Assembly: GCA_035438625.1 (NCBI GenBank) | Contig: DAORIS010000004.1 | Coordinates: forward strand, 7,497-71,496 | Reading direction: 5' to 3' | Origin: Minisyncoccota bacterium | Lineage (GTDB): Bacteria; Patescibacteriota; Minisyncoccia; Phycocordibacterales; DAORIS01 | DNA: 64,000 nt | Shown: positions 18,790-55,923 of the stretch, in pieces | Layout: each line of letters begins with the position of its first letter | How positions within the stretch are numbered: position 1 is the first letter of the stretch | Translations under genes and position numbers: made by a program | Notes under the pieces: generated by a model | Databases searched by the model: none | What the model saw: the letters and a program-made list of their open reading frames with translations, nothing else | Told to the model about the DNA's origin: nothing

Positions 18790-20241
18790 TTATGGTTTAC
18801 GAGGGAATAATGGGACTGAGGCTGCTCGATCAGCGATTGACGCGAGAATCTTTTCAGAAGTTTCAGGCATGAATGGTGCAAGTTCTTTCGCAAGTATTGA
18901 TAGGTCTGAAACGAGTCCCGCAACCGTTTTTCGTGCCTTATCTGGATCCTGCTTAAACATCTCAAACGGCTTTTCTTGTTGGATCTTCTGGTCTAACTTT
19001 GTTATTTCAGCCATGATCAAACCCATTGCATTGTTTAATTCATATGCAGCCACTGCGTCTGCAATACCTTTTATGAGTTCACCAGTTGATATTGATTCCA
19101 CTCCACTGTCCCAGGCGTCATAGTTTGCCGCCATCTTAAGAATACGGGAAGTTGTATTACCAATTCCATTTGATAGCTGTGAGTTGTACGCCTTAAAGAA
19201 CAAGTCACGAGTAAACGGTGAGTCTTCAAACGGTTGCACTTCTCTAATTACAAAATATCGTAGGGCATCTGTTCCATACTCATTAATTATTTCCACAGGA
19301 GAAATAACATTGCCTATGCTCTTACTCATCTTAATACCACCTTCACCAGTTACAAACCCATTAATGACGATTTGTTTTGATGGCTCAATATCCGCAGACA
19401 TAAGCATTGCTTGCCACATAGCCGACTGCTGACGGAGGTTATCTTTTCCAGCAAACTGAATTACCGGCCAGAATGTATTGAATTTCTCCATATCAGTTGG
19501 CCAACCGATAGCTGAAATGTAATTGATCAGAGCATCGAACCATACATACATCACTTGCTCTGGATCTCCTGGAACCTCTACACCCCACGGCATTTTCGAC
19601 TTCAGGCGAGAGATACTAAAGTCCTTAAGACCACGCTCTACAAAGGCTTTAATTTCATTAAACCTAAATTCTGGAATTACAAACTCAGGATTGGCTTTGT
19701 AATGTGCGAGTAATTTCTCTGCATATGCTGAAAACTTAAAGAAATAGTTCTCTTCTTTAATGAGTTCAATTTCTATGTTTGGATGAAGTGGACACTTTCC
19801 GTTATCAAGTTCGGAATCTGTTTTTTCTAACTCACAGCCAACGCAATACTTAACGGTATATTCTTGTTTATAAATATCACCCGCAGCTTCTGATTTCTTC
19901 CAAAATTCTTGAGCAGCTTTTTTGTGGTGTTCGTCTGTCGTACGGATAAAGTTGATCTCAGAAATATTGAGTTGCGTTAACAAATCCTTAAACTTTTCGG
20001 CATACCCATTTACATATTCCTGAGTATCTTGACCAGCTTTTTGTGCATTCAGATATATCTTCATTCCATGCTCATCGGTACCAGTATTAAAAAAGACTTC
20101 GTGTCCTTGTGACCGAAGATATCGAACTACCGCATCAGCACGGATAATTTCCATAGCAAAACCAACGTGCGGCTCTGCGTTTACGTACGGGAGCGTCGTT
20201 GTGACGTATACCTGCTTTTTAGGATTGGTGTGCTTGCTCAT
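18790..20241 (-). CDS. metG: Methionyl-tRNA synthetase.
   Basis: - HIGH-region equivalent (PYVNAEPHVGFAME), TGTDEHG and KMSKSIGN motifs; short-form MetRS of 483 aa. Confidence 0.9.
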   Translation of the reverse strand: MSKHTNPKKQVYVTTTLPYVNAEPHVGFAMEIIRADAVVRYLRSQGHEVFFNTGTDEHGMKIYLNAQKAGQDTQEYVNGYAEKFKDLLTQLNISEINFIRTTDEHHKKAAQEFWKKSEAAGDIYKQEYTVKYCVGCELEKTDSELDNGKCPLHPNIEIELIKEENYFFKFSAYAEKLLAHYKANPEFVIPEFRFNEIKAFVERGLKDFSISRLKSKMPWGVEVPGDPEQVMYVWFDALINYISAIGWPTDMEKFNTFWPVIQFAGKDNLRQQSAMWQAMLMSADIEPSKQIVINGFVTGEGGIKMSKSIGNVISPVEIINEYGTDALRYFVIREVQPFEDSPFTRDLFFKAYNSQLSNGIGNTTSRILKMAANYDAWDSGVESISTGELIKGIADAVAAYELNNAMGLIMAEITKLDQKIQQEKPFEMFKQDPDKARKTVAGLVSDLSILAKELAPFMPETSEKILASIADRAASVPLFPRKP

Positions 20242-21308
20242 ACGGGCGATTCTTCCACAGGAATAGGGATTCGTCTATTACGTTCTCTGTCTCCGAGATA
20301 CTCAATGAGTAGCGTTGCAACAGGAATAGAAAGTATTGCACCAAGAATTCCTCCAAGCTTAAGTCCAACAATCAAGCTGATGATAACCACGAGCGGTGGC
20401 ACTCCAATTACTTTTCGTACCACTGCAGGGTAAATGACATGACTCTCCAATTGTTGAATGATCACGAATAACGCTGCAACAAGCAGTGCCAAACTCACTC
20501 CTCCGTCCAAGAACCCAATTGCGATTCCTGGAATTGATCCGAGGATTGGACCGAACACAGGGATAATTTCAAAGAATGCAGCAATGATTGCAAGCAGCAA
20601 TGCGTGCCGGACACCGAGCGCTGAAAGACCAATGAATGCCAGAACTCCAATAATTGCAGCAAGAAATATTTGTCCTTGCATCCAACGAGCAATATTTCGC
20701 TGTGAGCGACGCCAGAGCCCAATCACATAGCGCTCATATTTAAGCGGAGTGATGATACGAAGAAAATCTCCTACCCCATCTTCTTGTGTACTGAGGTAAA
20801 ACGACAAGACAGCAATAATAACTAAAGTTGAGGCCCCTCCAAATAACGCAGACCCAAGTTCATACGTATTTCCCCCAACTGACCTAATTAATTCAGCAGT
20901 GCCCGCCAAATAATCCAAGAACGATGTTGCGTGCGAGAATATTTCAATTGAATTTTCAAAGCCCAAAAATCCTGGACTTGATAGTGCGAACTCGTCCAAA
21001 TAACTTGGGAGTGCCTGAAGGAGGCCGTTAATCTCTGTCGCAAGAATCGGCAATACGTACACAATTCCTGCGACAAATACCGCTAGAATTGAGGCGTATA
21101 CACCTACAACACTCACTGTACGAGGTACACGTTTAGCCATTAGTGCCCTAATAACAGGCTCAACTGATGAGGCCAGGACCACTGCAGAAAGAATGGCGAG
21201 TAGGATATTGTGAATGAAATAAATAAGTACTCCAGCCACAATAAAAGCTGCTAGCCGGCCAACAATGGCATGAGCTACAGCAATTCTTTCTTGGGCAGCT
21301 GGTGACAT
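20238..21308 (-). CDS. AI-2E family (PerM/UPF0118) transporter.
   Basis: - 356 aa with eight predicted transmembrane helices in a layout typical of the AI-2E family. Confidence 0.55.
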   Translation of the reverse strand: MSPAAQERIAVAHAIVGRLAAFIVAGVLIYFIHNILLAILSAVVLASSVEPVIRALMAKRVPRTVSVVGVYASILAVFVAGIVYVLPILATEINGLLQALPSYLDEFALSSPGFLGFENSIEIFSHATSFLDYLAGTAELIRSVGGNTYELGSALFGGASTLVIIAVLSFYLSTQEDGVGDFLRIITPLKYERYVIGLWRRSQRNIARWMQGQIFLAAIIGVLAFIGLSALGVRHALLLAIIAAFFEIIPVFGPILGSIPGIAIGFLDGGVSLALLVAALFVIIQQLESHVIYPAVVRKVIGVPPLVVIISLIVGLKLGGILGAILSIPVATLLIEYLGDRERNRRIPIPVEESPV

Positions 21309-21345
21309 AGGGCTATCATACCATCATGCCTTAGTCGTGTATCTA

Positions 21346-22707
21346 CTACAGCGCCTTGGCTTCTGAAAGGAGTTTTTCGATTGAAATTCGCTCTTGTTTT
21401 CCACTATCCCTGTCTCTTAAAGTCACAGTTCCGTCTTCTAGCGTATCGAAATCAACAGTGACACAATAAGGTGTTCCAATTTCATCTTGGCGACGATATC
21501 GCTTACCGATGTTTCCATTGTCATCAAATTCGACATGTCCAACGAGTTTCTTGAGGCTCATGTACACCTCTCGCGCTTTTTCAACTAACTGAGGCTTATT
21601 TTTCAACAGTGGGAATACTGCGTATTTAACTGGAGCAACTGCATAGGGAAATTGTAGGTACACACGCTTTTCACCACCTACTTCATCTTCCTTATATGCT
21701 TCTGTAAGGACAGCAAGTACAGTACGATCAACGCCAAATGATGGCTCAATTACGTGTGGAATAAAACGCGACTTGGAATCCTGGTCAAAATATGTGAGAT
21801 CTACTCCAGAGTGCTTTGAGTGTGCAGCAAGATCAAAATCTGTTCGGTATGCAAGACCATACAATTCTTTTATTCCAAACGGAAACTTATATTCAAAATC
21901 TACTGTTCGCTTTGAGTAGTGAGCGCGGTCTTCTCCTGGAACTTCATACTCTTTAATCTTGGCAGCATCAAGTCCCATGTCTTTTGTCCATTCTCTGATT
22001 TGTTCCACAAAATGAGTGAAGTGTGTTTCCCATTCTTCTGGACGAACAAAGTACTCAATTTCCATTTGCTCTAATTCACGTACTCTGAAAATGAAATCAC
22101 GTGGTGCAATTTCGTTTCTGAATGCCTTACCAATCTGAGCAATACCGAATGGAAGTGCTGGATGGTGTGAGTCCATCACATTTTTGTAGTTCACAAAAAT
22201 ACCTTGTGCGGTTTCAGGTCTGAGGTATGAGATTGAATTTTCGTCTTCTGATGCACCGAAGTTCGTCTTAAACATCATGTTGAACTGTTTGACGTCACCA
22301 AGTGCATTACCATCAGGGCTTTTAATTCCAAGCTCCTTAATGAGCGCGTCCATGTCAGAGGCATTTAGTCCCTTTGTTTCCTTTCCTGCTTCCTCAAGAA
22401 GGTGATCAGCGCGGAACCTTCGCTTTGTCTTCACATCTTCAACGAGTGGGTCGTTAAATCCAGCGACGTGTCCGCTTGCTTGCCAAACTTTTTGGTTCAT
22501 CAGAATTGCAGCATCTACCCCAAAGACATCTTCACGGTCGATGACAAAGCGCTTCCACCACATATTTTTGATGTTTTGCTTAAGCGCTAATCCGTAATGA
22601 CCATAATCCCATGTACCAGCAAGACCTCCATAGATTTCGGAGCCCTGGTAAATGAAACCTCGTCGTTTTGAAAGGGAAATTATTTCGTCCATTGAAGCAG
22701 CATACAT
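21346..22707 (-). CDS. glyQS: Glycyl-tRNA synthetase (dimeric alpha2 class II type).
   Basis: - 453 aa; EIYGGLAGTWDYGHYGLALKQNI and class II motifs are present. Confidence 0.88.
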   Translation of the reverse strand: MYAASMDEIISLSKRRGFIYQGSEIYGGLAGTWDYGHYGLALKQNIKNMWWKRFVIDREDVFGVDAAILMNQKVWQASGHVAGFNDPLVEDVKTKRRFRADHLLEEAGKETKGLNASDMDALIKELGIKSPDGNALGDVKQFNMMFKTNFGASEDENSISYLRPETAQGIFVNYKNVMDSHHPALPFGIAQIGKAFRNEIAPRDFIFRVRELEQMEIEYFVRPEEWETHFTHFVEQIREWTKDMGLDAAKIKEYEVPGEDRAHYSKRTVDFEYKFPFGIKELYGLAYRTDFDLAAHSKHSGVDLTYFDQDSKSRFIPHVIEPSFGVDRTVLAVLTEAYKEDEVGGEKRVYLQFPYAVAPVKYAVFPLLKNKPQLVEKAREVYMSLKKLVGHVEFDDNGNIGKRYRRQDEIGTPYCVTVDFDTLEDGTVTLRDRDSGKQERISIEKLLSEAKAL

Positions 22708-22716
22708 TTAGCTACG

Positions 22717-24654
22717 TTACGGCGCAAGGATAGCAGCTTGGTTGGCTTGGATATCAGCTGCCTGCGTCGTGACAGACACAAGACCGATGCGTACTTCCTG
22801 CTCAACAAACCGATCCACTCCAACTACCGTTGCGGCGTTTACAAGAACTGGAATCTGTCCAACTTGGCTTGCGCTTGGCAACATTTCAACCTGGAAATAT
22901 GCTCGTTTATAGTCACTTTCAAATCCAGTATACGCAGAAACTTCTCCTGCCTTCCATGAGATTGTGCGTGTTAATTCGTTATATGTAACATTCGTGCTTG
23001 ATGCTTGGTTTGGGACAAACTGTACGTAAATTGGCAGTGTTGCCGTCACCTCAACATTTGAAACATGGTTAACGGTATTGTTTAACTGCCACTCGATTGT
23101 GTAACGAGTCTTTTGTTCTGCCTTTGGAGGGATGGGACCTGTGTTTGTAAATGGACCAGTTTTGTATAACGCTTGCGAGAGTCCGCCAAGTGCAGTTGCG
23201 AAACGGATTTGTTTTACACTCTTGATTTCAATGTTGTCTGATGAACCTTGTTCTGAGACAACTTTTCCCTTGATGGTAATTTCATATTCCAGTCCTGGAT
23301 TTCTAATGTTCCTTCCGATCTCTTGGAGCGTGAGTGTGTCAAACGAGAACGATACTGATCCTTGTTCGCCCGGTGAAAGTACAGCGAGGTCTTGCTCTGT
23401 TGAACGATCCCAGTACACCGTGTCATTTGAAGATTGGTAAAAGCCAGCAGCAGGCTTAATACTTGATCGGTCGTGGAGATTTCCTTTTATCTTAACCTCA
23501 ATTCGTGGATCAAGAATGTCTCTTGAGAGGTTGTTGCTAAATGAGATGTTATTACTGATTGCTGAGCCGAGGGTTGAAATCTCAGTTTTCTGACCATTTG
23601 AAAGTGTGGATTGTGTATCAGTTACGATAGTTACTGATGGGCGTAATATGTTCACTTCTGCAAGTTTTGTAGTGAGGGTTGTAAGGAGTGCACGATCATC
23701 TTCTGGATCTTTTGTGCCAGCTGAGAATTTAAAGACTTTATCTTCATTGTCTTGTGCTTGCACAATACCAGTTATCTTAATTTTCTTTATTTCTCCAGCT
23801 TTAAGTAAGGGGAAATTCCAAATTAATCCATTCTCAAGAGCAGCTGGCTCTGACTTTGAAAATGCAAATCCAAATGGGTACTCTGCCTTTAGAACAATGT
23901 CTTTCAAGTCCGATCGCATGTTTGACCTTACCTCAATATCAAACGTTGTTTCTTGTCCTGAGCTAATTGCCTTTTGATACTCAATTAAAAGACTGATCGG
24001 GGATTGACTCACAGTGATTTCATATTCCTTTTTCTTTTCATACCTGGTACCTGATTCACCGACTGAATATGCTGCAGTGACAACAATCTGCTTGCGCTCT
24101 CCTTCCTCACCAAGCAAAATTACCGATCCTGCAACTTGTCCTGAGGCGCCACGTGAGATTGTTCCAATAGATCGGACATCACGTAACTTTTCCTGCGTTG
24201 GATTTTCTGGATCCATTGATCCATCAGGATATTGAAGTGTAATTTCAACATCTTCGAGGTCTACTCTGTTTTTGTTAATAAACGACACTGAAAATGGCAC
24301 AGCTTCTCCTCCTGCAACCGAGACTGCTGAGGTAAGGACAATGTCTACATTTTTTGAAGAAATAAATAACTTATCTGAAAACAAGTAGACTGCAGCGAGC
24401 GCTGCAGCGCCTAAACAAAAAGCAAGTGACGAAAAGAAAAATATTTTGTACCACTTCCCGCTTTTTGATGACTTTGGACCCTCTTCGTGTCTCTCTTCAA
24501 GTGTAGCGTGTTCCCACTCTGGAACTACTGTGTGTATTTGTTCTTGAGATTTTAAACTACGACGTTCGTTATCATCAGTAGAAAAATCCGCGTTTGGAGA
24601 ATACAATCGCTTCTTAAGTGCCTCAATCTTGCTCTGATCTAACTCACTTTGCAT
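22717..24654 (-). CDS. Hypothetical membrane-anchored protein with repeated beta-sandwich (DUF11/CARDB-like) domains.
   Basis: - 645 aa with a cytoplasmic N-terminus, one transmembrane helix (about aa 70-92) and a large extracytoplasmic region of repeated beta-rich segments.
- No catalytic motif. Confidence 0.45.
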   Translation of the reverse strand: MQSELDQSKIEALKKRLYSPNADFSTDDNERRSLKSQEQIHTVVPEWEHATLEERHEEGPKSSKSGKWYKIFFFSSLAFCLGAAALAAVYLFSDKLFISSKNVDIVLTSAVSVAGGEAVPFSVSFINKNRVDLEDVEITLQYPDGSMDPENPTQEKLRDVRSIGTISRGASGQVAGSVILLGEEGERKQIVVTAAYSVGESGTRYEKKKEYEITVSQSPISLLIEYQKAISSGQETTFDIEVRSNMRSDLKDIVLKAEYPFGFAFSKSEPAALENGLIWNFPLLKAGEIKKIKITGIVQAQDNEDKVFKFSAGTKDPEDDRALLTTLTTKLAEVNILRPSVTIVTDTQSTLSNGQKTEISTLGSAISNNISFSNNLSRDILDPRIEVKIKGNLHDRSSIKPAAGFYQSSNDTVYWDRSTEQDLAVLSPGEQGSVSFSFDTLTLQEIGRNIRNPGLEYEITIKGKVVSEQGSSDNIEIKSVKQIRFATALGGLSQALYKTGPFTNTGPIPPKAEQKTRYTIEWQLNNTVNHVSNVEVTATLPIYVQFVPNQASSTNVTYNELTRTISWKAGEVSAYTGFESDYKRAYFQVEMLPSASQVGQIPVLVNAATVVGVDRFVEQEVRIGLVSVTTQAADIQANQAAILAP

Positions 24655-24679
24655 ATACTCGAGAAATTATAGCACTCTG

Positions 24680-25258
24680 TTACCTTCCAATATGCCCAGT
24701 TGCCACCTTTACTGCAGCAGTAACTGCAAACTCAGCCCCAAGAATGGTCTGTACATCAATTTCCTCAAGTGGTAACCGCATCAAGCGTTCAATCGTCTCT
24801 GACATCTTTGGTAAGAAACCCGCAGCATAAAGCATCCTCGCTGAAGTCCACGATTCAAGTGCAGTACGAGTCTCAGGACCGTGGTCTGCCTTACCAACAG
24901 TCAATTTAAAAAATTCCGAAAGGGGAATATATATTCCAGACACAGGCTCATCATAAATTGTTATAGCCGAAGCAATCCAAGACAATCGCGCATACTCTTT
25001 ACGTCGTTTTGGATCAGGAGTTTGGAGGGTCACAATATCTGTTAACCTCCATACATTCCTTCCTCGAATCAACGACATCCTCGCTAAGGTATGTTCTGCG
25101 GCTCCCATGCGTAGTTTCGATGAAAGCTTTCGAAGGCTCTTTCCTACAACTGCAATTTTTCCAAAGCGTTCGGTTAGAACTATGAGCACCTTATCATCAG
25201 CACTCCTATCGTGAGCACCTAAAATAATTCCATCAACGGAGTAAATCTCATACGACAT
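24680..25258 (-). CDS. recO: Probable DNA repair protein RecO (short form).
   Basis: - The N-terminal OB-fold pattern (GIILGAHDRSADDKVLIVLTERFGKIAVVGKSLRKLSSKLRMGAAEHTLARMSLIRGRNVWRLTDI) resembles RecO.
- 192 aa is shorter than typical RecO. Confidence 0.45.
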   Translation of the reverse strand: MSYEIYSVDGIILGAHDRSADDKVLIVLTERFGKIAVVGKSLRKLSSKLRMGAAEHTLARMSLIRGRNVWRLTDIVTLQTPDPKRRKEYARLSWIASAITIYDEPVSGIYIPLSEFFKLTVGKADHGPETRTALESWTSARMLYAAGFLPKMSETIERLMRLPLEEIDVQTILGAEFAVTAAVKVATGHIGR

Positions 25259-28200
25259 GAATTGTTGCTTCCGTATGTTCTTTGGATAGTTCTATTTTGG
25301 AAGCGGAGACAGTATTTGCGAGTTCATCTTTCCACGTACCAAGTATTTGCTCCATTGCTTCTGTATCTGGCAATGAAACTGTAATTTTGTCTCCAGGTTG
25401 TAGCCCTGCTTCTTTACGCTTGTCTTGTATCAGACGGACCAAGTCTCTATATGATCCTTCAACAATAAGCTCTGGTGTAAGGGTCGTATCAAGTGAGACA
25501 GTGTCAGACTCACCTTCTGTAAAGACAACTTCTTTTACGTTAGTCTCTTCACTAATGAGGTGTTTATATTCTTCTTGCACATCTGGGTTCACGTGTGAAA
25601 ACACGTGGTTTGAACAAGAGATTTTTGTAAGTGGTTGGCGTACTTTTATGTTTGCCTTCATGCGTTCATCAAGTACTGCTGAGACAATAGTTCGAACAGA
25701 AGTCATTATTTCCATTCGTACTGTTCGTGCTTCTTTTTCTGTATTAGTAAGTTCTTGTATTTCAGGCCAGCTCGCAAGATGCACGCTTTCTGGATCGGAC
25801 TCCGTTTTCACAACAGCAAATATTCTCTCTGCAATAAATGGCATTGATGGAGCAATTGTTCGGCTAAACACATGTAGTACATGACGTAATACCGAAGCTG
25901 CAACAACTGCATCTTCGTCTTCATTCTTAAGTCTGTCTCGTGAGCGGCGTACGAACCACGTTGATAGATCATCTACAAATCCTTCAAGTGGTCGGAGTGC
26001 ATCATCAAGTGCATACATCTCCATATGTGTTGTAAATGTCTCAAGAGTTTCATTAAGTCGCTCTATTATCCACATATCCAAGACGCCCAAGTTTCTCGTA
26101 TTGAGCTCTCCATCCTTCACCTTATCTTTTGCGTACATTGAATAGAACGAAAGAACGTTTTCGAGTCGCAAGACAATCTTCTTGTAGATCGTATCTAGAT
26201 CCTTTTCAGCGAAGTTCATGTCTTCTGAACGCATCAATGGTGATGAGAGGAGATAGTAGCGGAGTGCGTCCACACCATATTTATCAAATGTAAGTGCAGG
26301 GTCAGGGAAATTATTCTTGGACTTAGACATTTTCTGTCCGTCTTCAGCAAGTACATTTCCTGTCGTTACAACGTGTTCAAACGGTGCCTTATCGAACAAC
26401 ATTGTTCCAAGCACATGCATGTAATAAAACCAGGTTCGTGTTTGTGCCAAATACTCAGCAACAAACTGTGCAGGAAAACGTTGTGCAAACACATCTTTGT
26501 TTTCCATTGGAAAATGCTGTGACGCAAAGGGCATTGAGCCCGATTCAAACCAACAGTCGATCACTTCTGGTATACGACGCATGACTCCTCCATTTCCATC
26601 CGAAAATACAATTTCATCTATATACGGTCGGTGAAGGTCGAGTTCGTAACATTCATTGTGAGGAATTGGTATGAAATTAAGTTCGCGACACTCTGCATTT
26701 TTCATGTAGTCTCCTTGTTTTGATGCGCGAAGGGCTGCAGCAGCTGGAACATCGAGTCCCCCCGCAACACTTTCCATGATCCATAGTGGTGATTCATGGC
26801 CAACAACCAAGACGGTATCGTTTTCATGTTTTGCGTATGTCTCGTATAAAAATTCACCTATACGCTGACGAACATCAGTGAGACTTTCCCCTCCTGGCAT
26901 TTTCTCAGCAAACGCTGCTGTATATGTCTCGTGGAGCTTGTGATACAAATGCACATCCTTCCCTTCAAGTTCTCCAAAAGAGACCTCTCTCAATCTCGGA
27001 TCAAATACCACTGATTCCTCAGAAAGCCCCAGTGCTTTCGCTACCTGTAACGCAGTTTCTTTGGTGCGTAAAATGTCAGAAGAATAAATATGTTTAATTC
27101 CCAACTTTTTTAATTCCGGTACAGCTGAAACCACCTGCTCTTTTCCAAGTTCAGTTAACGGATATGGTGCATGCAGATCAGCACTAAGAATGCCTTTAGC
27201 ATTATTCTCAGCCTGACCATGACGCATGACGAAGAAACGATTTTTCTTGTCTACCTTTGCCTTAAGCTCCGCAAGTGTCCCGATTACCTCAAATTTTCCA
27301 GTTTTTTCTGATTTCCATATTGGAAGCGGTGATGCCCAGAATCTGTTACGTGAAATGTTCCAGTCTGGTGCTCCTTCAGCACTCTTTCCGAATCGTCCAA
27401 GTTTCAAATGATCTGGTACCCAGTGGATATTCTCATTGAGTTCGAGGATTCGTGATTTTGATTTTTGGATGTTGATAAACCACGCTGGGATTGCGAAATA
27501 GAACAGAGGTGTGTCACATCGGTAACAGTGTGGATATGAGTGTGCAATTACTTCTTTAGCAAACAGAGTTCCAGCTCCTGCTAATTTTTTTATGATTTCA
27601 ATATCCATTACCTGATGATCTCCTGGCTTTTCAGGCTTCGGCTTTACGTGGCGACCCATCAAATCCTCTATCTCATCAGAAAACTTTCCTTCACTTGTCA
27701 CATGGTGTCTCCATGGAATACCTTCCTTCTTTGCCAAGTCCATGTCGTCTTCACCGTACCCTGGTGAAATGTGCACAACACCCGTTCCGCTTCCAGCCTC
27801 AACAAATGTTGCTGGATATATCTTCCATGCTTTGTATTTAGTATCTTCAAGGGCAGGATGTCCTACGAAATAATTAAAGAGTGGCTTGTATGAAAGGCCA
27901 AGCAGTTCTGTTCCAGGAAATTCTTTTTGTATAGAAATTTCATATCCACGTTTTACTAATACTTCTTCCACTCTATCTTTTGCAAGGATGATTGTATGTG
28001 TTTTTCCTTCTTTAGAAACCACTGCCTCTACGTATGAAAGTTCAGGGTTTATTGCAAGCGCAAAATTTCCCGGAAGAGTCCATGGTGTTGTTGTCCACGC
28101 GAGTACATGTACTCCAGGTCGATCGGTGAGTTCAAACAATACATACACAGAAATATCCCTGATATCTCTGTAGCTGTTATCCATCGCAATCTCAGAGTTT

Positions 28201-28769
28201 GCGATCGGTGTCTCACATCGTGGACAGTATGGAAGTACACGTGTACCCTCATATACATTTTGTTTCTCATTGAGTTCCTTAAGCGCCCACCAGACTGACT
28301 CAATATATGAGTTGTCCATTGTCTTATACGAACCATCAAAATCTACCCAACGACCAATACGCTCGACAGTCTCTTTCCAATCATGAACATAGCCGAGCAC
28401 CTTGCTTCGCGCATGTTCATTAAATTTTGCAATGCCGTATTTTTCAATTTCTTTTCGGCCAGCAATTTTCAGGTCTTTTTCAACGATATTTTCAATAGGT
28501 AGTCCGTGACAATCCCATCCCCATTTACGCTCAACACGATACCCTCGCATCGTTTTGTATCGAGGTACCATGTCTTTAATTGTGCTCGCAAGAATGTGTC
28601 CAAAGTGAGGAGTACCGGTTGCAAATGGTGGACCATCATAAAAGACATACTCACCGTTTGGTGCGTCTTTCTCTAAGGTCTTTTTGAAAAACTCACCGGT
28701 GCGCCAAAAATCGAGTACGCGTTCCTCGGCCTGCGCAACAGCGCTTTTAACTGGTTTTGTATCGCTCAT
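25248..28769 (-). CDS. ileS: Isoleucyl-tRNA synthetase with an inserted histidine-phosphatase (phosphoglycerate-mutase-like) domain.
   Basis: - HIGH motif (PFATGTPHFGH), CP1 editing domain (TTTPWTLPGN), WNISRNRFW, HRPYID, CWFESG and KMSKS (GQKMSKSKNN).
- Residues about 510-705 form a complete His_Phos_1-type domain (RFFVMRHGQAENN; LTELGKEQ; IYSSDILRTKETA; FGELEG; GESLTDVRQRIGEF; VLVVGHESPLWIM), inserted between PLPIW and HRPYID. Confidence 0.9.
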   Translation of the reverse strand: MSDTKPVKSAVAQAEERVLDFWRTGEFFKKTLEKDAPNGEYVFYDGPPFATGTPHFGHILASTIKDMVPRYKTMRGYRVERKWGWDCHGLPIENIVEKDLKIAGRKEIEKYGIAKFNEHARSKVLGYVHDWKETVERIGRWVDFDGSYKTMDNSYIESVWWALKELNEKQNVYEGTRVLPYCPRCETPIANSEIAMDNSYRDIRDISVYVLFELTDRPGVHVLAWTTTPWTLPGNFALAINPELSYVEAVVSKEGKTHTIILAKDRVEEVLVKRGYEISIQKEFPGTELLGLSYKPLFNYFVGHPALEDTKYKAWKIYPATFVEAGSGTGVVHISPGYGEDDMDLAKKEGIPWRHHVTSEGKFSDEIEDLMGRHVKPKPEKPGDHQVMDIEIIKKLAGAGTLFAKEVIAHSYPHCYRCDTPLFYFAIPAWFINIQKSKSRILELNENIHWVPDHLKLGRFGKSAEGAPDWNISRNRFWASPLPIWKSEKTGKFEVIGTLAELKAKVDKKNRFFVMRHGQAENNAKGILSADLHAPYPLTELGKEQVVSAVPELKKLGIKHIYSSDILRTKETALQVAKALGLSEESVVFDPRLREVSFGELEGKDVHLYHKLHETYTAAFAEKMPGGESLTDVRQRIGEFLYETYAKHENDTVLVVGHESPLWIMESVAGGLDVPAAAALRASKQGDYMKNAECRELNFIPIPHNECYELDLHRPYIDEIVFSDGNGGVMRRIPEVIDCWFESGSMPFASQHFPMENKDVFAQRFPAQFVAEYLAQTRTWFYYMHVLGTMLFDKAPFEHVVTTGNVLAEDGQKMSKSKNNFPDPALTFDKYGVDALRYYLLSSPLMRSEDMNFAEKDLDTIYKKIVLRLENVLSFYSMYAKDKVKDGELNTRNLGVLDMWIIERLNETLETFTTHMEMYALDDALRPLEGFVDDLSTWFVRRSRDRLKNEDEDAVVAASVLRHVLHVFSRTIAPSMPFIAERIFAVVKTESDPESVHLASWPEIQELTNTEKEARTVRMEIMTSVRTIVSAVLDERMKANIKVRQPLTKISCSNHVFSHVNPDVQEEYKHLISEETNVKEVVFTEGESDTVSLDTTLTPELIVEGSYRDLVRLIQDKRKEAGLQPGDKITVSLPDTEAMEQILGTWKDELANTVSASKIELSKEHTEATIHVV

Positions 28770-28801
28770 GTATAGGTATTATAACTTTTTCTCTCCCATT
28801 C

Positions 28802-30496
28802 TTACATCTCCTCAACAACAGGAATGGCCAAGACGGTGAGAACCTCTCTAAGAACCGTCGCCACAGCATACGTAATGGCAAGTCTGTATGGCGTATATGG
28901 ACTATCGTGATCAATGATCTTTGTCTCGGCGTAATACCCATTAAATGTTCCTGCAAGCTTCAGTGCATAGGCAACAAGCAAGTTAGGTGAGCCTGTTTCG
29001 TGGGCACGCTTTAATACGTGCGGAAGTTCTGGAAGAAGCATCTCAGGAGACTCAGGACTGTCAGGTGGAAGAATTGCTTTAGGCTTCATTGATTCATTTG
29101 CTGCCTTTCGCAAGATCGATTGGGCGCGCACGTATGCATATTGTAGATATGGGCCAGAATCACCCTCAATTGAAATAGCGTTTTCAGGATCAAAGATAAT
29201 GTCTCCACCAACAGCTTGTCTTAGAATTGAGTACTTGATTGATCCGATCGCAATTTTTTCTGCAAGATCTTTTTTTGCATCTTCACCCATCTCTCTATCA
29301 GCCATTTTCTCAAGTACACGCTCTGCTACTGATTCAATGAGACCATCGCCTGATACAACATTTCCCTTTCTTGAACTCATTTTTCCTCCCTTAAAGCGCA
29401 TCATGCCGTGAGAGATATGGGTGATCTTTGATCGAGCTTCCATATCGATGTCTTCCATTGCAGCAAGCATCACCTTGAAATAGTCGTCTTGTTCGTTTGC
29501 GGTAATGATGACAGATGTATCCGATGGAACCTTCTTTGGCTTATCGACGAGGTTTAGGACAAGGTCTTTTGCTTCGTACGTTGGAAGTCCTCGTGAATTT
29601 AAAAATACTCGAGTGTGAAGTCCTTTCTTCTCACCTTTGTATACAACAGCACCATCACTGTCCTCAAATACCCCCTTTTCCTTCCATTCTTGAACAAGCT
29701 TTACGGCACGCTCTGCCATTTCACTTTCAAAGAAATATGCATCGAACTTTGTACCAAGCTTTGTATATATTTCTTCAAAATGTTCGAGACTTACTTTTCT
29801 TCCCCAGTCATAGAGACTAACAACATCAGGATTATTTTTTGCGTAAATAGAAACATTCAAGTCATCTATTTCTTTTTTAATAGATTCTTGTGCTTCATAT
29901 TGTTGTGACCCAATTGAGTACGCACGACCAAGATATTCAATGTCTGTTTCGCCTTCCTGCTTTTCATTCCTCATCATCGCCCAAATTGTCTTTGCAATGT
30001 GCGGACCAACATCACCTTGGTAACACGCACGTTTCACCTCCGCACCTTGTCTTTGTGCAATGCGAGATAGTGCTTCACCAACAGTATTAGACATCAAATG
30101 CCCGATATGAAACTCCTTAAATGGATTAGGATCAGTGTACTCGTAGAGCATCGTTTTTCCCTTCTGTTCTGTGTTACTTCCGTACTCTTTTGGAGTATTG
30201 AGTATCTCTTTTACCGTTGAAGCAAAGTATCCACGAGAAAGATAGATGTTTAAAAATCCAGGGCCGGCAGCCTCTACTTTCTCAATTTCCATGAGGGATT
30301 TTGAACGGATATAGACAGCAATTTCTTCGGCAATTACGAAGGGTTTTTGGCCAAGCGGCTTTGAGGCAACCATAGCAGCGTTTGCTGTTATGTGACCGCG
30401 CTCAGCAGAAGAACCGTGCTCCACGGCAAAATTTAAGCCTTCCAGGCCCTTTCCAGCGAGATATTCTTGTATGAGTGATTCTATCTTTCCTACCAT
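28802..30496 (-). CDS. argS: Arginyl-tRNA synthetase.
   Basis: - 564 aa with an N-terminal add-on domain, a HIGH motif (FHIGHLMS) and a DALR anticodon-binding C-terminus ending in Met. Confidence 0.88.
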   Translation of the reverse strand: MVGKIESLIQEYLAGKGLEGLNFAVEHGSSAERGHITANAAMVASKPLGQKPFVIAEEIAVYIRSKSLMEIEKVEAAGPGFLNIYLSRGYFASTVKEILNTPKEYGSNTEQKGKTMLYEYTDPNPFKEFHIGHLMSNTVGEALSRIAQRQGAEVKRACYQGDVGPHIAKTIWAMMRNEKQEGETDIEYLGRAYSIGSQQYEAQESIKKEIDDLNVSIYAKNNPDVVSLYDWGRKVSLEHFEEIYTKLGTKFDAYFFESEMAERAVKLVQEWKEKGVFEDSDGAVVYKGEKKGLHTRVFLNSRGLPTYEAKDLVLNLVDKPKKVPSDTSVIITANEQDDYFKVMLAAMEDIDMEARSKITHISHGMMRFKGGKMSSRKGNVVSGDGLIESVAERVLEKMADREMGEDAKKDLAEKIAIGSIKYSILRQAVGGDIIFDPENAISIEGDSGPYLQYAYVRAQSILRKAANESMKPKAILPPDSPESPEMLLPELPHVLKRAHETGSPNLLVAYALKLAGTFNGYYAETKIIDHDSPYTPYRLAITYAVATVLREVLTVLAIPVVEEM

Positions 30497-30555: not shown

Positions 30556-31305
30556 TTACTTTTTCTTCAGTATCTTTGAAACAACCTTGAGTACCTCCGC
30601 GTGTATTGCTTCTCGAGAAAGAATCTCACCATTATTCTCACATTCAATCTTATGCCACGCGTTATTTTTCTTTACGATCGAGAGTGCGCTTTGCCGTGAT
30701 TTTTCTAGGTGATCAACGTTAGTCTCTGCCTGATCCTTACTTGTTCCAAGATACTTCTTTTTACTCTTAAGTGCCTCTGCAGCGTGTTTTTCGGCAAGTA
30801 ACTTTTGTCCGAGTGTAACTGAAAGATTGAGATACACAATGGCGTCAGGTCGAGGAATTTTAAAAACACCGTGTTCCATCATGTCGAGCCAGGAGAGAAA
30901 TTCTGTTCGCTTTTTTTCATCAAGGATTTTTCCACCTTGATGAATCTGATTTGCACTCACATACCTATCAGAAATGACAACATATCCATCTTCTAGCCAT
31001 TTTTCGATCTGAGCTTTTGTTTCCCATCGATCAGCAGCATAGAGAACTGAAGCTATGTGCGGATCAACTGCGATGAAATCTCCATATTTTCCTGCCAAAC
31101 ATTCACCAATTAGTTTTCCAAAAAAATTATCGTAATATCTTGGAAAGTCTATTTTCTTAATCTTATATCCTGACTTTTTTAACGCTGCATCAAGTAACGT
31201 ACATTGTGTCGCCTTTCCTGTTCCATCGGTTCCATCAAGAACAATAAAAGTTCCTTTTCTTTTGATCGCTTTTGTTTGTTTCTTATTTACCGGCATGTGA
31301 GGCAA
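30556..31305 (-). CDS. tmk: Thymidylate kinase.
   Basis: - P-loop (FIVLDGTDGTGKATQ), DRY-like motif (ISDRY) and a lid region; 249 aa. Confidence 0.8.
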   Translation of the reverse strand: MPHMPVNKKQTKAIKRKGTFIVLDGTDGTGKATQCTLLDAALKKSGYKIKKIDFPRYYDNFFGKLIGECLAGKYGDFIAVDPHIASVLYAADRWETKAQIEKWLEDGYVVISDRYVSANQIHQGGKILDEKKRTEFLSWLDMMEHGVFKIPRPDAIVYLNLSVTLGQKLLAEKHAAEALKSKKKYLGTSKDQAETNVDHLEKSRQSALSIVKKNNAWHKIECENNGEILSREAIHAEVLKVVSKILKKK

Positions 31306-32479
31306 TATTTTTCTTCAAAATTGAGTCGATCTTTTGGGCAAGTTTGACCATGTCTTTCTCTTTCATTCCTGCAGTTGTGACAGCTGCTGTTCCAAGTCGA
31401 ATACCTGATGGGTCGCTTGGCTTTCGTTCATCAAATGGAATAGTGTTCTTGTTTACAATAATTCCAGCTTTCTCAAGTGCAGCGCTCGCATCTGAGCCAC
31501 CTATTCCTTGTCCTGAAATCCACGTGTCCACCAAAACCAAATGACTGTCTGTTCCTCGAGAAATGATACGCCATCCGCATTTTGCGAGTTCTTCTGCAAG
31601 CACACGCGCGTTTTTAACCACCTGCGCTGCATACTTCTTAAACTTTGGATTTGCAGCTTCTCTAAGAGCTACGGCAACTCCCGCAATCTGGTTCATGTGT
31701 GGACCACCCTGGAGACCTGGAAATACCGCACGATCAATTTTTTTAGACAACTCACGCTCATCAATTCGAGAGAAGATGATTCCACTTCGAGGTCCACGAA
31801 GTGTTTTATGAGTTGTGGTTGTAACTACATCAGCATATTTAAACGGTGATGGATATGCTCCACCAGCAACTAATCCTGCAACGTGCGACATATCAACCAT
31901 AAGTATTGATCCTGCCGCATCAGCAATGTCTCTAAATTTTTTAAAATCTATTACTCGTGGATAACATGTGTACCCAGCAACAATAAGTACCGGTTTTTCA
32001 GCTACAGCAATTCTTTTTAATTCTTCGTAATCTAATACTTCAGTATCTTTATTAACTCCATACGGAACTTGTTTCCAAAACTTCCCTGTCATTGATACAG
32101 AGTGTCCATGGGTTAGATGTCCACCGTGCGCAAGTTCCATTCCCATGATCTTTCCACCAATTGGAACGAGTGCAGAATACACTGCTAAGTTTGCGGGTGA
32201 ACCTGAAAGTGGCTGAACATTTACTCCCCATTTTTTTGGAGAAAGTCCAAATAGCAACAGTGCTCGCTCGCTACAGAGATCTTCTAGTTTATCCGTATTT
32301 GTCTGCCCTCCGTAATACCTTCGTCCTGAATACCCTTCTGCATACTTATTTACAAACTCTGAACCAAGCGCTTCAAGCACATCTTCTGAAACATCATTCT
32401 CTGAAGCAATCAAATTTATGACCGATTGCTGCCTTTTAACTTCATCCTTAATCAGTTTTGCTACTTGTGTGTCTTTCAT
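31283..32479 (-). CDS. glyA: Serine hydroxymethyltransferase.
   Basis: - LIASEN..., the PLP-lysine region (TTTTHKTLRGPRSG) and GGPH are present; 398 aa. Confidence 0.95.
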   Translation of the reverse strand: MKDTQVAKLIKDEVKRQQSVINLIASENDVSEDVLEALGSEFVNKYAEGYSGRRYYGGQTNTDKLEDLCSERALLLFGLSPKKWGVNVQPLSGSPANLAVYSALVPIGGKIMGMELAHGGHLTHGHSVSMTGKFWKQVPYGVNKDTEVLDYEELKRIAVAEKPVLIVAGYTCYPRVIDFKKFRDIADAAGSILMVDMSHVAGLVAGGAYPSPFKYADVVTTTTHKTLRGPRSGIIFSRIDERELSKKIDRAVFPGLQGGPHMNQIAGVAVALREAANPKFKKYAAQVVKNARVLAEELAKCGWRIISRGTDSHLVLVDTWISGQGIGGSDASAALEKAGIIVNKNTIPFDERKPSDPSGIRLGTAAVTTAGMKEKDMVKLAQKIDSILKKNIASHAGK

Positions 32480-32521
32480 TGCAGCCGCAATTCTAGCATG
32501 TCTGAAACCTGTGTTCCTTGT

Positions 32522-32557
32522 ACAAAAAACCGCACCATCTTCGTAAGACAGTGCGGT
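32522..32557 (-). terminator. Rho-independent terminator (minus strand).
   Basis: - An interrupted hairpin (accgcac..tctt-cgt-aaga..gtgcggt) followed on the minus strand by UUUUUUGU.
- Directly downstream of gene 32569..33336. Confidence 0.55.
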
Positions 32558-32568
32558 AGTAATCTAGT

Positions 32569-33336
32569 TTATGTAGCTCCCACCAATACTTCCTTCTCCT
32601 TCTGTTTTTCAACGCTAGCGAATTCCAGTTCGTCCCCATCGATTACGGTGATACTCACACCTGCCGGGACAACGCAATTAAACCGTATTCGGTCCTTCTC
32701 GGTGACCGTAAGATCCTTGCCTCCAATCTTGACAGTGTTAATCAATCCAATGTTTCCCTTCGATATGAATTGACCGTCGTAGAGAACGTAGGCAGCAATT
32801 TCTGGACTGCCATTAGGAACAAAGTTCCAATTAACCACCCAGATGTTTTGCAACACCTCTTGAGGTATTGAGTGTCCAAACGTCGGCAGAAGACGTGCGA
32901 ACAAAACACGTGCATCTGTGAACATATCGTTCAACCAATCGTACCCGTTTGTCTTTTCGTGCGGAACCATAAGACATGCAGCAGCATGTGGATGCGCACT
33001 TGACCCAACCGACACCTCAGGAACTGCTGCTTGTTCATCGTACAAGAACGAACGAGAATCGCGTGTAATACGATCAGTGACCGTACACACCACTCGATTC
33101 TCGTGGTGCTCAACAAGAACTTCAAACATCTGAGAAAACTTCAGTAACTGTTCCGGCGACAATTCACAGTACGCATCAGCACAGTCACCTCCTTCAGTTA
33201 CGAGCGCCAATCCGTCAGTGTACCTGATGATGTCATCGGGTACATTCAGTTGCTGCACAAGTACCGGCGGCAAACCTCTGACAAAGCGCGCACAAGCAGA
33301 AACGATCTTCCTAGGCCAGAGTACATACCTTGACAT
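32569..33336 (-). CDS. Hypothetical protein of 255 aa, probably co-transcribed with thyX-like and dcd.
   Basis: - No recognisable motif.
- Short intergenic distances to the upstream thyX-like and dcd genes.
- Its own terminator lies downstream. Confidence 0.5.
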   Translation of the reverse strand: MSRYVLWPRKIVSACARFVRGLPPVLVQQLNVPDDIIRYTDGLALVTEGGDCADAYCELSPEQLLKFSQMFEVLVEHHENRVVCTVTDRITRDSRSFLYDEQAAVPEVSVGSSAHPHAAACLMVPHEKTNGYDWLNDMFTDARVLFARLLPTFGHSIPQEVLQNIWVVNWNFVPNGSPEIAAYVLYDGQFISKGNIGLINTVKIGGKDLTVTEKDRIRFNCVVPAGVSITVIDGDELEFASVEKQKEKEVLVGAT

Positions 33337-33383
33337 GACTCCTCCATGGTTTGAGACGACAAGGTGCTTACCCCTTAACGCTA

Positions 33384-34679
33384 CTACCTTTCCTTAATGT
33401 CGTGAAGCCCCCTACGCACATCCCAATCATCTAAACTTAAATCAGGATGTAGTGTCACCTCTGGAAATCTTCTACTCATAAATCGATACATTTTATGTGC
33501 AACCGCCCGAAGTGTTGCATGCACCGTTTTTCCAGAGCGTAGTTCCATGACGTATGTCGCAGCAGGAAGACCGTATGTCATCTTTGCTGAAACTAGAAAT
33601 CCCATCGCGCAATAATATTGTTTTTCATCAGCATTTGCAGGAAGTGCGTTTATTGACTGTCGCTGTAATTTAATTAGAGCTTCAGCTTCCTCACGTACAT
33701 CCACAGGAAGCGCCTCTAGATACCATTTTTCAAATCCGAAACTTGTACCAAGTCGTGGCATGCGACAGACACCATTTCTGTGACGTTGGAGATCTCTGAA
33801 CGATCCAAAGTCGATTAGACACTCAAAAGAAAGTTCGCCAAGTTCAGTTAGTATGTGAGGGAGTACAGCTTTCGCAGGACGATTTTTTAATATTTTTTTA
33901 AATGGCTTAAGGTCAGCGTTTCTAATTGTCGTCATTGCAGCAAAACCACTTGGAACTCGTTTTCCAGTGTAGTACGTGAGAGTTTCTGCAACTGTTTTTC
34001 GGTATTCTTCCTGCTCTTCATATACCTTATGCGCAAAGCTATGACCATATTTAGCCCTCAACTGCTTCAATATTTCTTCTGCAACATCACGCACCTCTTT
34101 AAGTGGGTGATATACAAGCGAGGACAGTTTATCGTGTGCTTGGCGCAAATTTGTGTGCCATGAAAGCTGCGTAGTCACACCAGCTGGTAGAAATCCTCGC
34201 AAGATATCAAACGATCGCGCGACAACTGCCTTTTCATACACCACTTCGTTTTCATCTGGTTTTTTAGGAAACGTATCTCGCACGTGATCCTTTACTGCTT
34301 CCTGCGAAGAAATATAAAAGTTCATCCAACGCTCAAGGATAGCTTTTGATTCTGGAGTTTGTACTGGATCCTTGATTGGCTGAGCAGCCATATTGATATA
34401 CCTCGAGCTTGTTTCTTGTCCTGAGTATAGTGGCCAATCTTGAACTGCTTTTGCAACAAGCATCGAAACACCTTCAATAAAAATAGTAGTGGATCCACAG
34501 TCAGCAATACTTGCGTGACCATACCCGACATAGAATTTTTCCATGAAAGATCCTGAGCCTGTCTCACGAACTTTTTCCACGTGCTCAGTTACACTCTTTG
34601 CACTTCGTGAATAAAGGGCTTGCATCATGGCAGTATCTTCAGGTCCGAATTCGTCGTAGATGTGGATGCGGGGTGCCAT
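33384..34679 (-). CDS. thyX: ThyX-like (Thy1-domain) flavin-dependent thymidylate synthase with a tandemly duplicated domain.
   Basis: - The first half has a ThyX-like segment (HASIADCGSTTIFIEGVSMLVAKAVQDWPLYSGQETSSRY) that resembles the ThyX core but lacks the RHR motif.
- The second half carries FRDLQRHRNG (RHR motif) and a ThyX-like C-terminal helix region.
- 431 aa is about twice a canonical ThyX. Confidence 0.45.
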   Translation of the reverse strand: MAPRIHIYDEFGPEDTAMMQALYSRSAKSVTEHVEKVRETGSGSFMEKFYVGYGHASIADCGSTTIFIEGVSMLVAKAVQDWPLYSGQETSSRYINMAAQPIKDPVQTPESKAILERWMNFYISSQEAVKDHVRDTFPKKPDENEVVYEKAVVARSFDILRGFLPAGVTTQLSWHTNLRQAHDKLSSLVYHPLKEVRDVAEEILKQLRAKYGHSFAHKVYEEQEEYRKTVAETLTYYTGKRVPSGFAAMTTIRNADLKPFKKILKNRPAKAVLPHILTELGELSFECLIDFGSFRDLQRHRNGVCRMPRLGTSFGFEKWYLEALPVDVREEAEALIKLQRQSINALPANADEKQYYCAMGFLVSAKMTYGLPAATYVMELRSGKTVHATLRAVAHKMYRFMSRRFPEVTLHPDLSLDDWDVRRGLHDIKER

Positions 34680-34704
34680 GATGGAATATTAAATTTGTAA
34701 CTGG

Positions 34705-55897: not shown

Positions 55898-55923
55898 TCT
55901 CTTTATATTATATACTGACCGTG

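Follow-up and report, generated by a model that had tools for sequence, protein, structure and literature searches.

A 64,000-nucleotide stretch of the Minisyncoccota bacterium contig DAORIS010000004.1 (hereafter the window) contains an ileS gene whose product, an isoleucyl-tRNA synthetase (IleRS), carries a histidine phosphatase domain nested within its CP3 module. The enzyme and the domain are each of a known kind; their nested, lineage-wide and recurrent arrangement is undescribed. An earlier, sequence-only reading of this stretch knew of no IleRS with an embedded phosphatase, and our survey agrees. No description of an IleRS with a histidine phosphatase was found in the open-access literature or on bioRxiv, the AARS Online domain catalogue holds no such module, and neither a paper on protein length in Candidate Phyla Radiation (CPR) bacteria nor one on CPR resistance genes mentions the architecture. 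Their NCBI names do not go beyond 'class I tRNA ligase family protein' or 'hypothetical protein', although automatic Pfam labels are public; a JGI label on one relative reads 'isoleucyl-tRNA synthetase/phosphohistidine phosphatase SixA/...GNAT'.

A histidine phosphatase nested in the CP3 module of IleRS

The ileS reading frame is uninterrupted, and on re-translation its only stop is the terminal one. Its product is 100% identical to the NCBI protein 'MAG TPA: class I tRNA ligase family protein [Candidatus Paceibacterota bacterium]'. By Pfam there is a tRNA-synt_1 stretch on either side of His_Phos_1, and after the second of them come Anticodon_1 and DUF5915. The NCBIfam ileS model TIGR00392 matches at 805.1 bits against a cut-off of 621.4, its match likewise split in two stretches by the insert. 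Conservation figures given here refer to the 120 best homologues, and locus inspection to the 80 best genomes; names of IleRS domains are taken from published work (PMC7191050, PMC7955072). The synthetase comprises the following features (window coordinates; - is the reverse strand).

25248-28769, -: ileS, a single open reading frame of 1173 residues encoding a type-2 (eukaryote-like) IleRS with a nested phosphatase domain
27255-28769, -: IleRS residues 1-505, with the first half of the Rossmann fold, CP core, CP1 editing domain, CP2 and the start of CP3 (Pfam tRNA-synt_1 on 18-510; aligns to yeast IleRS 12-491)
28596-28607, -: class I HIGH signature (HFGH, residues 55-58), with H55, G57 and H58 invariant in the 120 homologues
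28080-28097, -: WTTTPW, motif of the CP1 editing domain (residues 225-230), invariant in the 120 homologues
27333-27371, -: CP2-CP3 linker APDWNISRNRFWA (residues 467-479), whose counterpart lines the tRNA CCA-end pocket in yeast
26319-26333, -: KMSKS signature (residues 813-817), read from the sequence
25248-26639, -: IleRS residues 711-1173 and stop, with the remaining CP3 (DLHRPYID), second Rossmann half, stem-contact fold, anticodon-binding domain and C-terminal domain (from Pfam and structure alignment)

HIGH, KMSKS and WTTTPW are invariant or nearly so across the homologues, and with these signature and editing motifs intact the gene appears, on sequence grounds, to encode a complete, functional-looking IleRS. 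An AlphaFold model of the full-length protein has a predicted local distance difference test score (pLDDT) of 92.3 and a predicted template modelling score of 0.87, with pLDDT above 90 across both junctions of the insert. The IleRS body superposes on IleRS2, yeast and Thermus IleRS with target-normalised template modelling (TM) scores of 0.80-0.91; Foldseek against the PDB returned 8C8V (E = 4.5e-81, target-normalised TM 0.82), 1ILE (0.91) and 8WND (0.80-0.89). Sequence matches to type-2 IleRS reach E = 1e-184 to 1e-200, as against 2e-75 (S. aureus) to 9e-57 for type-1 enzymes, and identity in the fold alignments is 29-32% to enzymes on the type-2 side versus 18-20% to type-1 IleRS. The window IleRS is of type 2: bacterial IleRS of type 1 are more distant from it than IleRS2 and the eukaryotic and Thermus enzymes. 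It falls far short of the MupA/MupB mupirocin-resistance models NF000257 and NF000258 (642 and 647 bits against a cut-off of 1900); its relation to MupA/MupB is one of shared type-2 class, not of membership.

The position of the insert is fixed by alignment to a solved yeast structure. Window residues 13-505 correspond to yeast IleRS residues 12-491, and window residues 711-1088 to yeast residues 499-888. Since the yeast alignment resumes at 499 after 491, the ~205-residue insert stands in for a loop of ~7 residues. The phosphatase domain proper, of ~190 residues, is thereby seated in a CP3 loop at the surface of the enzyme. Insert-less sister IleRS have ~9 residues and an intact zinc knuckle where the insert would sit, and among the fused homologues the insert measures 182-217 residues. 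The distance from PLPIW to HRPYID had been put at 50-60 residues for ordinary IleRS; this figure was too high, as the closest insert-less relatives and yeast IleRS have about 28. The features of the insert are as follows.

26640-27254, -: whole insertion relative to insert-less IleRS (residues 506-710, 205 residues), nested in CP3, from alignments to yeast and insert-less IleRS
26670-27239, -: histidine phosphatase fold proper (residues 511-700), from first strand RFFVMRHG to last strand CREL, defined by PF00300, AlphaFold pLDDT above 90 and Foldseek
27219-27224, -: R516-H517 of the RHG motif, H517 being the predicted phospho-accepting nucleophile; both invariant (120/120)
27201-27203, -: N523 (RHGxxxxN), phosphate-pocket residue; 113/120
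27066-27068, -: R568, second phosphate-binding arginine; 120/120
26985-26987, -: E595, predicted general acid; 119/120, the sole exception being Asp
26796-26798, -: H658, second catalytic histidine; 120/120
26655-26663, -: P703-H704-N705, linker by which the chain re-enters CP3 after the phosphatase; 99%, 91% and 90% conserved, in the fused form only

CP3 spans residues 473-534 in Candida IleRS and 459-526 in yeast IleRS, is variable in topology and holds a zinc motif in Thermus (PMC7191050, PMC7955072). The yeast counterpart of the CP2-CP3 linker, 453-ARDWNVSRNRYWG-465, is part of the reveromycin/tRNA-site pocket (PMC7955072), and the window linker ends ~30 residues ahead of the insert. In 65 of the 120 fused relatives a CxxC...CxC zinc knuckle brackets the insert. 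The cysteines of this knuckle are kept in the insert-less sister enzymes; the window IleRS has S, T, D and N at the corresponding positions 487, 490, 724 and 726 (about nucleotides 27300-27309 and 26592-26600). On the far side of the phosphatase, the P-H-N linker motif is absent from insert-less relatives. The segment P703-N705 is modelled with low confidence in the isolated domain and with high confidence in the full-length protein, which suggests that it packs against the IleRS body.

The inserted domain is a complete branch-1 histidine phosphatase, as had been read from the letters: PF00300, the yeast alignment and the fold search agree on it. The originally proposed span, 26655-27242, corresponds to residues 510-705, and the peptides quoted for it (RFFVMRHGQAENN, LTELGKEQ, IYSSDILRTKETA, FGELEG, GESLTDVRQRIGEF and VLVVGHESPLWIM) all lie in the reading frame. 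The profile search recommended at the time matched Pfam His_Phos_1 (PF00300) to residues 513-677 with E = 1.5e-33 and 116.5 bits (cut-off 21.7; profile positions 2-166 of 194). AlphaFold models the excised domain at pLDDT 93.1, and Foldseek gives it TM scores of 0.74-0.78 to GpgP, PspA and PhoE. The nearest solved folds (GpgP Rv2419c, PspA, the riboflavin-pathway HFP, PhoE, TIGAR and CobC; TM about 0.75, 24-29% identity) are all small-molecule phosphomonoesterases of ~200 residues, and among the 50 nearest PDB folds there is no protein phosphatase and no phosphatase acting on nucleic acids. The inserts are acidic, with a median isoelectric point of 5.6 and a median net charge of -5.5.

No function-specific NCBIfam model reaches its cut-off on the window domain. 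The top match by score is the archaeal model of cofactor-dependent phosphoglycerate mutase (dPGM), NF038349 (dPGM_arch), at 90.2 bits against 225; the related PRK03482 (64.9 against 261) and PRK01295 (35.7 against 316) also fall short, as do CobC TIGR03162 (71.8 against 162.9) and PspA NF045917 (66.9 against 350). SixA gave no match in the listed NCBIfam table for the window protein, and a relative (P0219) scores 70 bits against its cut-off of 74.5. The defence models of PADLOC-DB matched neither the domain nor the whole protein, and the sole PHROG match is to a family annotated 'unknown function'.

The catalytic residues had been called conserved and the domain probably active, and the larger sample points the same way. 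The set R-H-R-E-H is complete in 119 of the 120 homologues, and N523, E628 and R636 are conserved at 94-98%. Mean pairwise identity of the insert is 37.5% (minimum 24%), versus about 65-67% for the synthetase core. Among 168 aligned copies, whether inserted, multi-copy or stand-alone, the signature R-H-N-R-E-E-R-H is dominant in every class. Because the catalytic residues are kept while the remaining domain varies freely, an active enzyme is the sensible reading; a near-invariant catalytic set on a drifting scaffold (24-37% identity) is, at the level of sequence, the signature of retained catalysis and purifying selection.

Distribution, stand-alone counterparts and recurrence

All 120 best database clusters combine PF00300 with the IleRS domains, at 48-57% BLASTP identity and lengths of 1108-1282 residues; they derive from Nomura-, Taylor-, Zambryski- and Vogelbacteria and from Parcubacteria. 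A relative of the window IleRS is encoded in at least 575 species-representative genomes. In the best 80 of these the match spans the full protein, and each of the 80 loci has exactly one phosphatase copy, inside ileS. The insertion is lineage-wide on this comparison with related genomes (120/120 clusters, 80/80 inspected loci), which was one of the checks proposed at the outset. Another concerned an assembly chimera or two genes fused by a frameshift, which we now regard as having a negligible chance of being behind the architecture. One open frame runs from IleRS sequence through the insert and into IleRS sequence again, GC content is continuous over both junctions, where composition is ordinary, and hundreds of independent assemblies from different studies have the same architecture; its presence in all 120 clusters and all 80 loci excludes an artefact. 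An intein or mobile element was also considered and rejected: the insert is in every member of the fused clade, its conservation is of the enzyme type, and the window protein contains no endonuclease.

Two observations concern the database records themselves. One locus (L027) and many others of the series L005-L075 are labelled, for instance, 'Candidatus Nanoarchaeia archaeon' or 'uncultured Candidatus Saccharibacteria' yet encode the Paceibacteria-type fused IleRS, and these labels of metagenome-assembled genomes are likely coarse or wrong. Several database proteins (e.g. P0133, P0161, P0238, P0244) begin at the Met of MRHG and run into the C-terminal half of IleRS. As there is no other Met for ~125 residues upstream, these are probably gene-calling artefacts on truncated contigs, a truly split IleRS being the less likely alternative.

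A search with the excised domain gave 13,198 matches at E < 1e-3 and 27 at E < 1e-30. The best 150 include 96 IleRS or IleRS fragments and ~35 genuine proteins of ~185-205 residues, which begin with Met and stop at the last strand of the fold, the endpoint equivalent to that of the window domain. No other synthetase occurs among these 150 matches, and every protein with recognisable flanks is an IleRS. We read the genomic context of seven stand-alone proteins, an eighth (L089) having no flanking genes. Four loci with complete genes (L081, L083, L085 and L091-L093, the last from a genome named as Candidatus Staskawiczbacteria) have argS, the phosphatase and an insert-less ileS of 931-962 residues, with 1-9 bp between phosphatase and ileS and with recO and a DUF11-like gene downstream, in the same order as in the window. 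In a fifth locus (L086) the contig stops within the N-terminus of ileS downstream of the phosphatase. Two more (L088, L090) have argS upstream; L088 has no downstream sequence, and L090 has a partial downstream reading frame without an IleRS match. Counted by protein, the stand-alone phosphatases next to ileS are P0173, P0180, P0203, P0220 and P0376, whose genes end 1-9 bp before an insert-less ileS or overlap it by a few bases. Wherever the gene downstream is readable (five gene families), the closest stand-alone phosphatases (~190 residues) are thus flanked by argS and by an ileS that lacks the insert. The corresponding anchors in the window are listed below.

28802-30496, -: argS, upstream neighbour and synteny anchor (gene call and synteny)
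28770-28801, no strand: spacer of 32 nucleotides between argS and ileS, without a stand-alone phosphatase gene
24680-25258, -: recO-like gene, downstream neighbour and second synteny anchor, in the same order in L081, L083, L085 and L091

In tblastn comparisons the stand-alone gene aligns to residues 510-698 of the window IleRS, and the insert-less IleRS beside it aligns, at 47% identity, to residues 11-502 and 711-1164. The stand-alone family comprises 318 clusters at E < 1e-10, named 'Patescibacteria group' or Staskawiczbacteria. By its sequence, the inserted module corresponds to what sister Paceibacteria encode as a phosphatase gene in its own right (~190 residues). No second or remnant phosphatase was found between argS and ileS in the fused loci, whose larger gaps carry unrelated, heterogeneous small genes. 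As a side observation of possible relevance, the Candidatus Staskawiczbacteria loci L091-L093 also have a HIT-family (PF01230) gene ~4 kb upstream of argS. Members of this family act as hydrolases of aminoacyl-adenylates and phosphoramidates.

The trees are neighbour-joining trees of a small sample. In that of the IleRS core the fused enzymes form one clade in 100 of 100 bootstraps, which makes a single relocation of the gene into ileS the simplest history within Paceibacteria. Several points count against so simple an account. The stand-alone lineages are placed with weak support (11/100 bootstraps), and the rearrangement could have carried the gene into the loop or the loop segment into a gene. 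Inserts at the CP3 site also occur in Peregrinibacteria-type enzymes. The tree of the phosphatase domain is noisy as to the direction of transfer, and its 'stand-alone' class is contaminated by truncated metagenome fragments.

IleRS of Gracilibacteria, Peregrinibacteria and Peribacteria also have this histidine phosphatase domain. When their copies are mapped onto the window protein, at least four insertion sites emerge (in window residues).

about 505/711: CP3 loop site, as in the window; 19 copies
about 722-730: second CP3 site, at the CxC knuckle; about 25 copies
735-775: site after the WFESG motif; 16 copies
860-900: site before the anticodon-binding domain; 60 copies

Some of these IleRS have from two to at least four phosphatase copies, in tandem or at separate sites (P0126, P0208, P0219, P0255, P0196). 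Nearly all are equipped with the full signature; across the multi-domain variants, R-H-N-R-E-E-R-H is complete in all copies except two. Others pair the phosphatase with a GNAT acetyltransferase, a P-loop kinase of the AAA_33, AAA_18 or Zeta-like type, or a DUF559 endonuclease. This variety of inserted enzymes was seen in Gracilibacteria- and Peregrinibacteria-type IleRS (P0397, P0409, P0410, P0458, P0459, P0475); alpha/beta hydrolase and Y1 transposase domains are further entries in precomputed labels. In one protein, P0458, the histidine phosphatase is lacking and residues 566-759 form a HAD-family phosphatase, at a site equivalent to that of the histidine phosphatase in related enzymes. Inserts are absent in related IleRS with a non-CPR label (e.g. 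a Verrucomicrobia enzyme) and in some further relatives. IleRS seems to be a hotspot of domain insertion in these bacteria.

Proposed role and competing explanations

We propose that IleRS and the phosphatase act together, that phosphatase activity is what has been selected, and that the substrate is a small phosphorylated compound handled in the vicinity of the synthetase, perhaps an inhibitor or by-product of the nucleotide type; taken as a whole, we see this proposal as evenly poised between right and wrong. The sequence-only reading had suggested that the domain could hydrolyse a phosphorylated or adenylated by-product, or could act in regulation or in mupirocin-like resistance. A phosphomonoester would be held by R516, R568, N523 and H658 and attacked by H517, following the standard two-step mechanism of the superfamily, for which the domain has the complete set of residues. 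E595 would protonate the leaving group, and the phospho-histidine would then be hydrolysed. In this way a small phosphorylated compound, for example a nucleotide-type by-product or inhibitor, could be hydrolysed close to the synthetase.

Cooperation between the two enzymes would explain why their linkage has been kept repeatedly: as operon neighbours, as the CP3 insert, at three or more other sites and as tandem copies. That a non-homologous HAD phosphatase once occupies the histidine-phosphatase site points to phosphatase activity itself as the selected property. A small phosphorylated substrate is the most likely and tRNA handling less so, because the nearest folds are small-molecule phosphatases and the inserts are acidic. 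The same data also contain points that weigh against this proposal. Several insertion sites and tandem copies suggest that precise geometry is not essential, and they fit plain co-expression as well as functional coupling. The operon also contains unrelated housekeeping genes, and the HAD replacement was seen in one protein only. With no curated function-specific model passed, the substrate is a guess.

A broader reading, which we put forward tentatively and consider doubtful, sees CPR IleRS as the host of an exchangeable set of accessory enzymes (histidine phosphatase, HAD phosphatase, GNAT, P-loop kinase), which together would protect isoleucine charging or control its quality, as a layer that has so far gone unrecognised. 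If true, this layer may free the acceptor end of tRNA-Ile from a phosphate or pyrophosphate that blocks it, or destroy a phosphorylated or aminoacyl-nucleotide-type inhibitor of IleRS, and the window phosphatase would be its most widespread form.

The clearing of tRNA ends can also be considered on its own. Here the tethered phosphatase would strip a blocking phosphate from the acceptor end of tRNA-Ile and so enable charging; possible blocks are a 3'-phosphate, a toxSAS-type 3'-pyrophosphate and the product of a cyclic-phosphate end. The CP3 insert lies ~30 residues past the linker that lines the CCA pocket, and tRNA-specific pyrophosphorylation of the 3'-CCA end is an established attack that blocks charging (10.1101/2021.04.30.441581; PMC11559606). 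Gracilibacteria-type IleRS, moreover, sometimes have an AAA_33/AAA_18 P-loop kinase beside the phosphatase, or a HAD phosphatase in its place. Phage T4 Pnkp, an RNA-repair enzyme, likewise unites a kinase with a HAD phosphatase. We nonetheless find this explanation unlikely. Nucleic-acid and protein phosphatases are missing from the top 50 folds, the inserts are acidic, and the commonest Gracilibacteria site precedes the anticodon-binding domain, remote from the acceptor end; GNAT partners do not fit, and no defence-system model was matched.

Insertion at many sites and in tandem, which implies that geometry is irrelevant, is what one would expect of a mere passenger, namely an unrelated housekeeping phosphatase or the missing phosphoglycerate mutase, first co-expressed with and then fused into a highly expressed essential gene of a streamlined genome. 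The surrounding operon is indeed a mix of unrelated housekeeping genes, archaeal dPGM is the best-scoring NCBIfam match, and a phosphoglycerate kinase gene (48939-50093, -) lies in the window, hence lower glycolysis is present in the organism. The linkage is nevertheless specific to ileS, across two deeply separated CPR classes and in the form of both an adjacent gene and four or more insertion sites, and we judge a passenger unlikely as well. As to a mutase, the dPGM models remain far under their cut-offs (90 versus 225 bits for the best), and true mutases (solved dPGMs) rank below the phosphatases in the fold comparison, at 18-21% identity. The motifs of the window domain, 'E..FG..EG' and 'H-x-x-P', are of what we take to be the phosphatase type, not the mutase 'ERHYG' and 'HGN'. 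The missing-mutase version was marked down on the grounds of these motifs and the failing models.

Branch-1 histidine phosphatases include the protein phosphatases PGAM5, Sts-1 and SixA, and the domain might dephosphorylate IleRS or a partner, for example to reverse inhibition of the HipA-on-GltX type. A kinase-like P-loop domain or a GNAT beside the phosphatase in some Gracilibacteria-type IleRS could suggest post-translational control, and SixA is named in the JGI label quoted above. We regard such a regulatory role as improbable: protein phosphatases are absent from the 50 nearest folds, SixA is unmatched in the listed table for the window protein and just under its cut-off in P0219, and AAA_33 and AAA_18 are not protein-kinase folds. 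Very improbable, in our estimate, is a catalytically silent module that serves as a spacer or as a tRNA-binding or phosphate-sensing surface in place of the lost zinc knuckle. It would suit the short, rigidly modelled junctions and the lack, in the window IleRS, of the knuckle kept by 65 of 120 relatives. Those knuckle-bearing relatives have the insert too, however, and a nucleophile, general acid and phosphate pocket that are near-invariant on a drifting scaffold, with the same residues in stand-alone orthologues, speak against loss of catalysis.

The link between IleRS and a phosphatase has been made several times, which argues that CPR cells need a phosphatase beside IleRS, a requirement beyond current models of aminoacylation. 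Few enzymes have been studied as thoroughly as the aminoacyl-tRNA synthetases, and the hydrolases known to be nested in their catalytic cores are editing domains. Here a second, chemically unrelated hydrolase lies within the catalytic domain of an essential synthetase, throughout a class of uncultured bacteria to which much of environmental diversity belongs. The fused and unfused versions found in nature allow direct comparison. For annotation, surveys that count PGAM-like domains may mis-score CPR metabolism.

Genomic surroundings and comparison with known systems

The ileS gene is one of four aminoacyl-tRNA synthetase genes within 12 kb on one strand (18790-30496, -): MetRS (18790-20241), a class II enzyme with an HGTP anticodon domain (21346-22707), IleRS and ArgRS. 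Among them lie genes for an AI-2E-family transporter, the recO-like protein and a 645-residue DUF11 surface-type protein. Upstream of argS (30556-35796, -) is a pyrimidine/dTMP-related run of thymidylate kinase, serine hydroxymethyltransferase, a ThyX-like protein (431 residues, longer than usual) and dCTP deaminase. A type IV pilus/type II secretion cluster (53031-62324, -) encodes, besides a T2SSE ATPase and a T2SSF platform protein, a pilin-like protein that bears an N-methylation motif; a 1545-residue reading frame without a Pfam match (57687-62324) adjoins its genes. At the far end, the 23S rRNA gene (61-4053, -) measures 3993 nucleotides, compared with 2925 for the model. It contains a group I intron (1080-1359, 67.9 bits), and further inserted sequence must exist; long 23S rRNA with insertions is typical of CPR rRNA genes. 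No tRNA genes were found in the window.

Compared with known systems, the window protein has all IleRS domains and signature motifs in common with the solved type-2 enzymes (Priestia megaterium IleRS2, 8C8V; Thermus thermophilus, 1ILE; yeast/Candida, 8WND, 7D5C and 6LDK). These have a CP3 loop of ~7-9 residues where the window IleRS has an enzyme domain of 205 residues, and Thermus IleRS has the CP3 zinc-knuckle cysteines that the window enzyme lacks (PMC7191050). From the branch-1 phosphatases PspA (4IJ5), Rv2419c glucosyl-3-phosphoglycerate phosphatase (4PZ9/4QIH), PhoE (1H2E), CobC, TIGAR and HFP (9MMH) the window domain differs in being nested in another enzyme, or, in its stand-alone form, encoded as the operon partner of that enzyme; it shares with them the fold, the size of ~190-210 residues and the Arg-His...Arg...Glu...His set, at 24-29% identity. 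An analogy within the synthetase is the CP1 editing domain, a hydrolytic domain that, like the phosphatase, is nested in the Rossmann fold by a two-strand connection and whose substrate is made at the synthetic site. All IleRS, ValRS and LeuRS have CP1, which acts by hydrolysing mis-acylated tRNA; the phosphatase is lineage-restricted, of another fold and chemistry, and sits in CP3. The class Ia domain layout with CP1 has been described (PMC7191050).

Fusions with other partners offer partial parallels. NF040702, an IleRS with an N-acetyltransferase domain, is a curated precedent for IleRS plus an extra enzymatic domain, and CPR IleRS with GNAT inserts exist. Its added domain is a GNAT, not a phosphatase, and it belongs to another IleRS lineage, as none of the CPR proteins compared reaches that model: the window protein, which has no GNAT Pfam match, scores 293 bits and the GNAT-bearing CPR enzymes 245-303, against a cut-off of 1999. 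In the Rv2228c-type RNase H/acid phosphatase (PRK07238; window domain 79.6 bits, cut-off 326) a CobC-like phosphatase is fused to a nucleic-acid enzyme, but end to end and with a different partner, whereas the window phosphatase is nested. T4 Pnkp resembles the set of P-loop kinase and phosphatase (once HAD) found in some Gracilibacteria-type IleRS. This is a resemblance only: the histidine phosphatase shares no homology with the phosphatase of Pnkp, and a kinase domain is lacking in the window protein.

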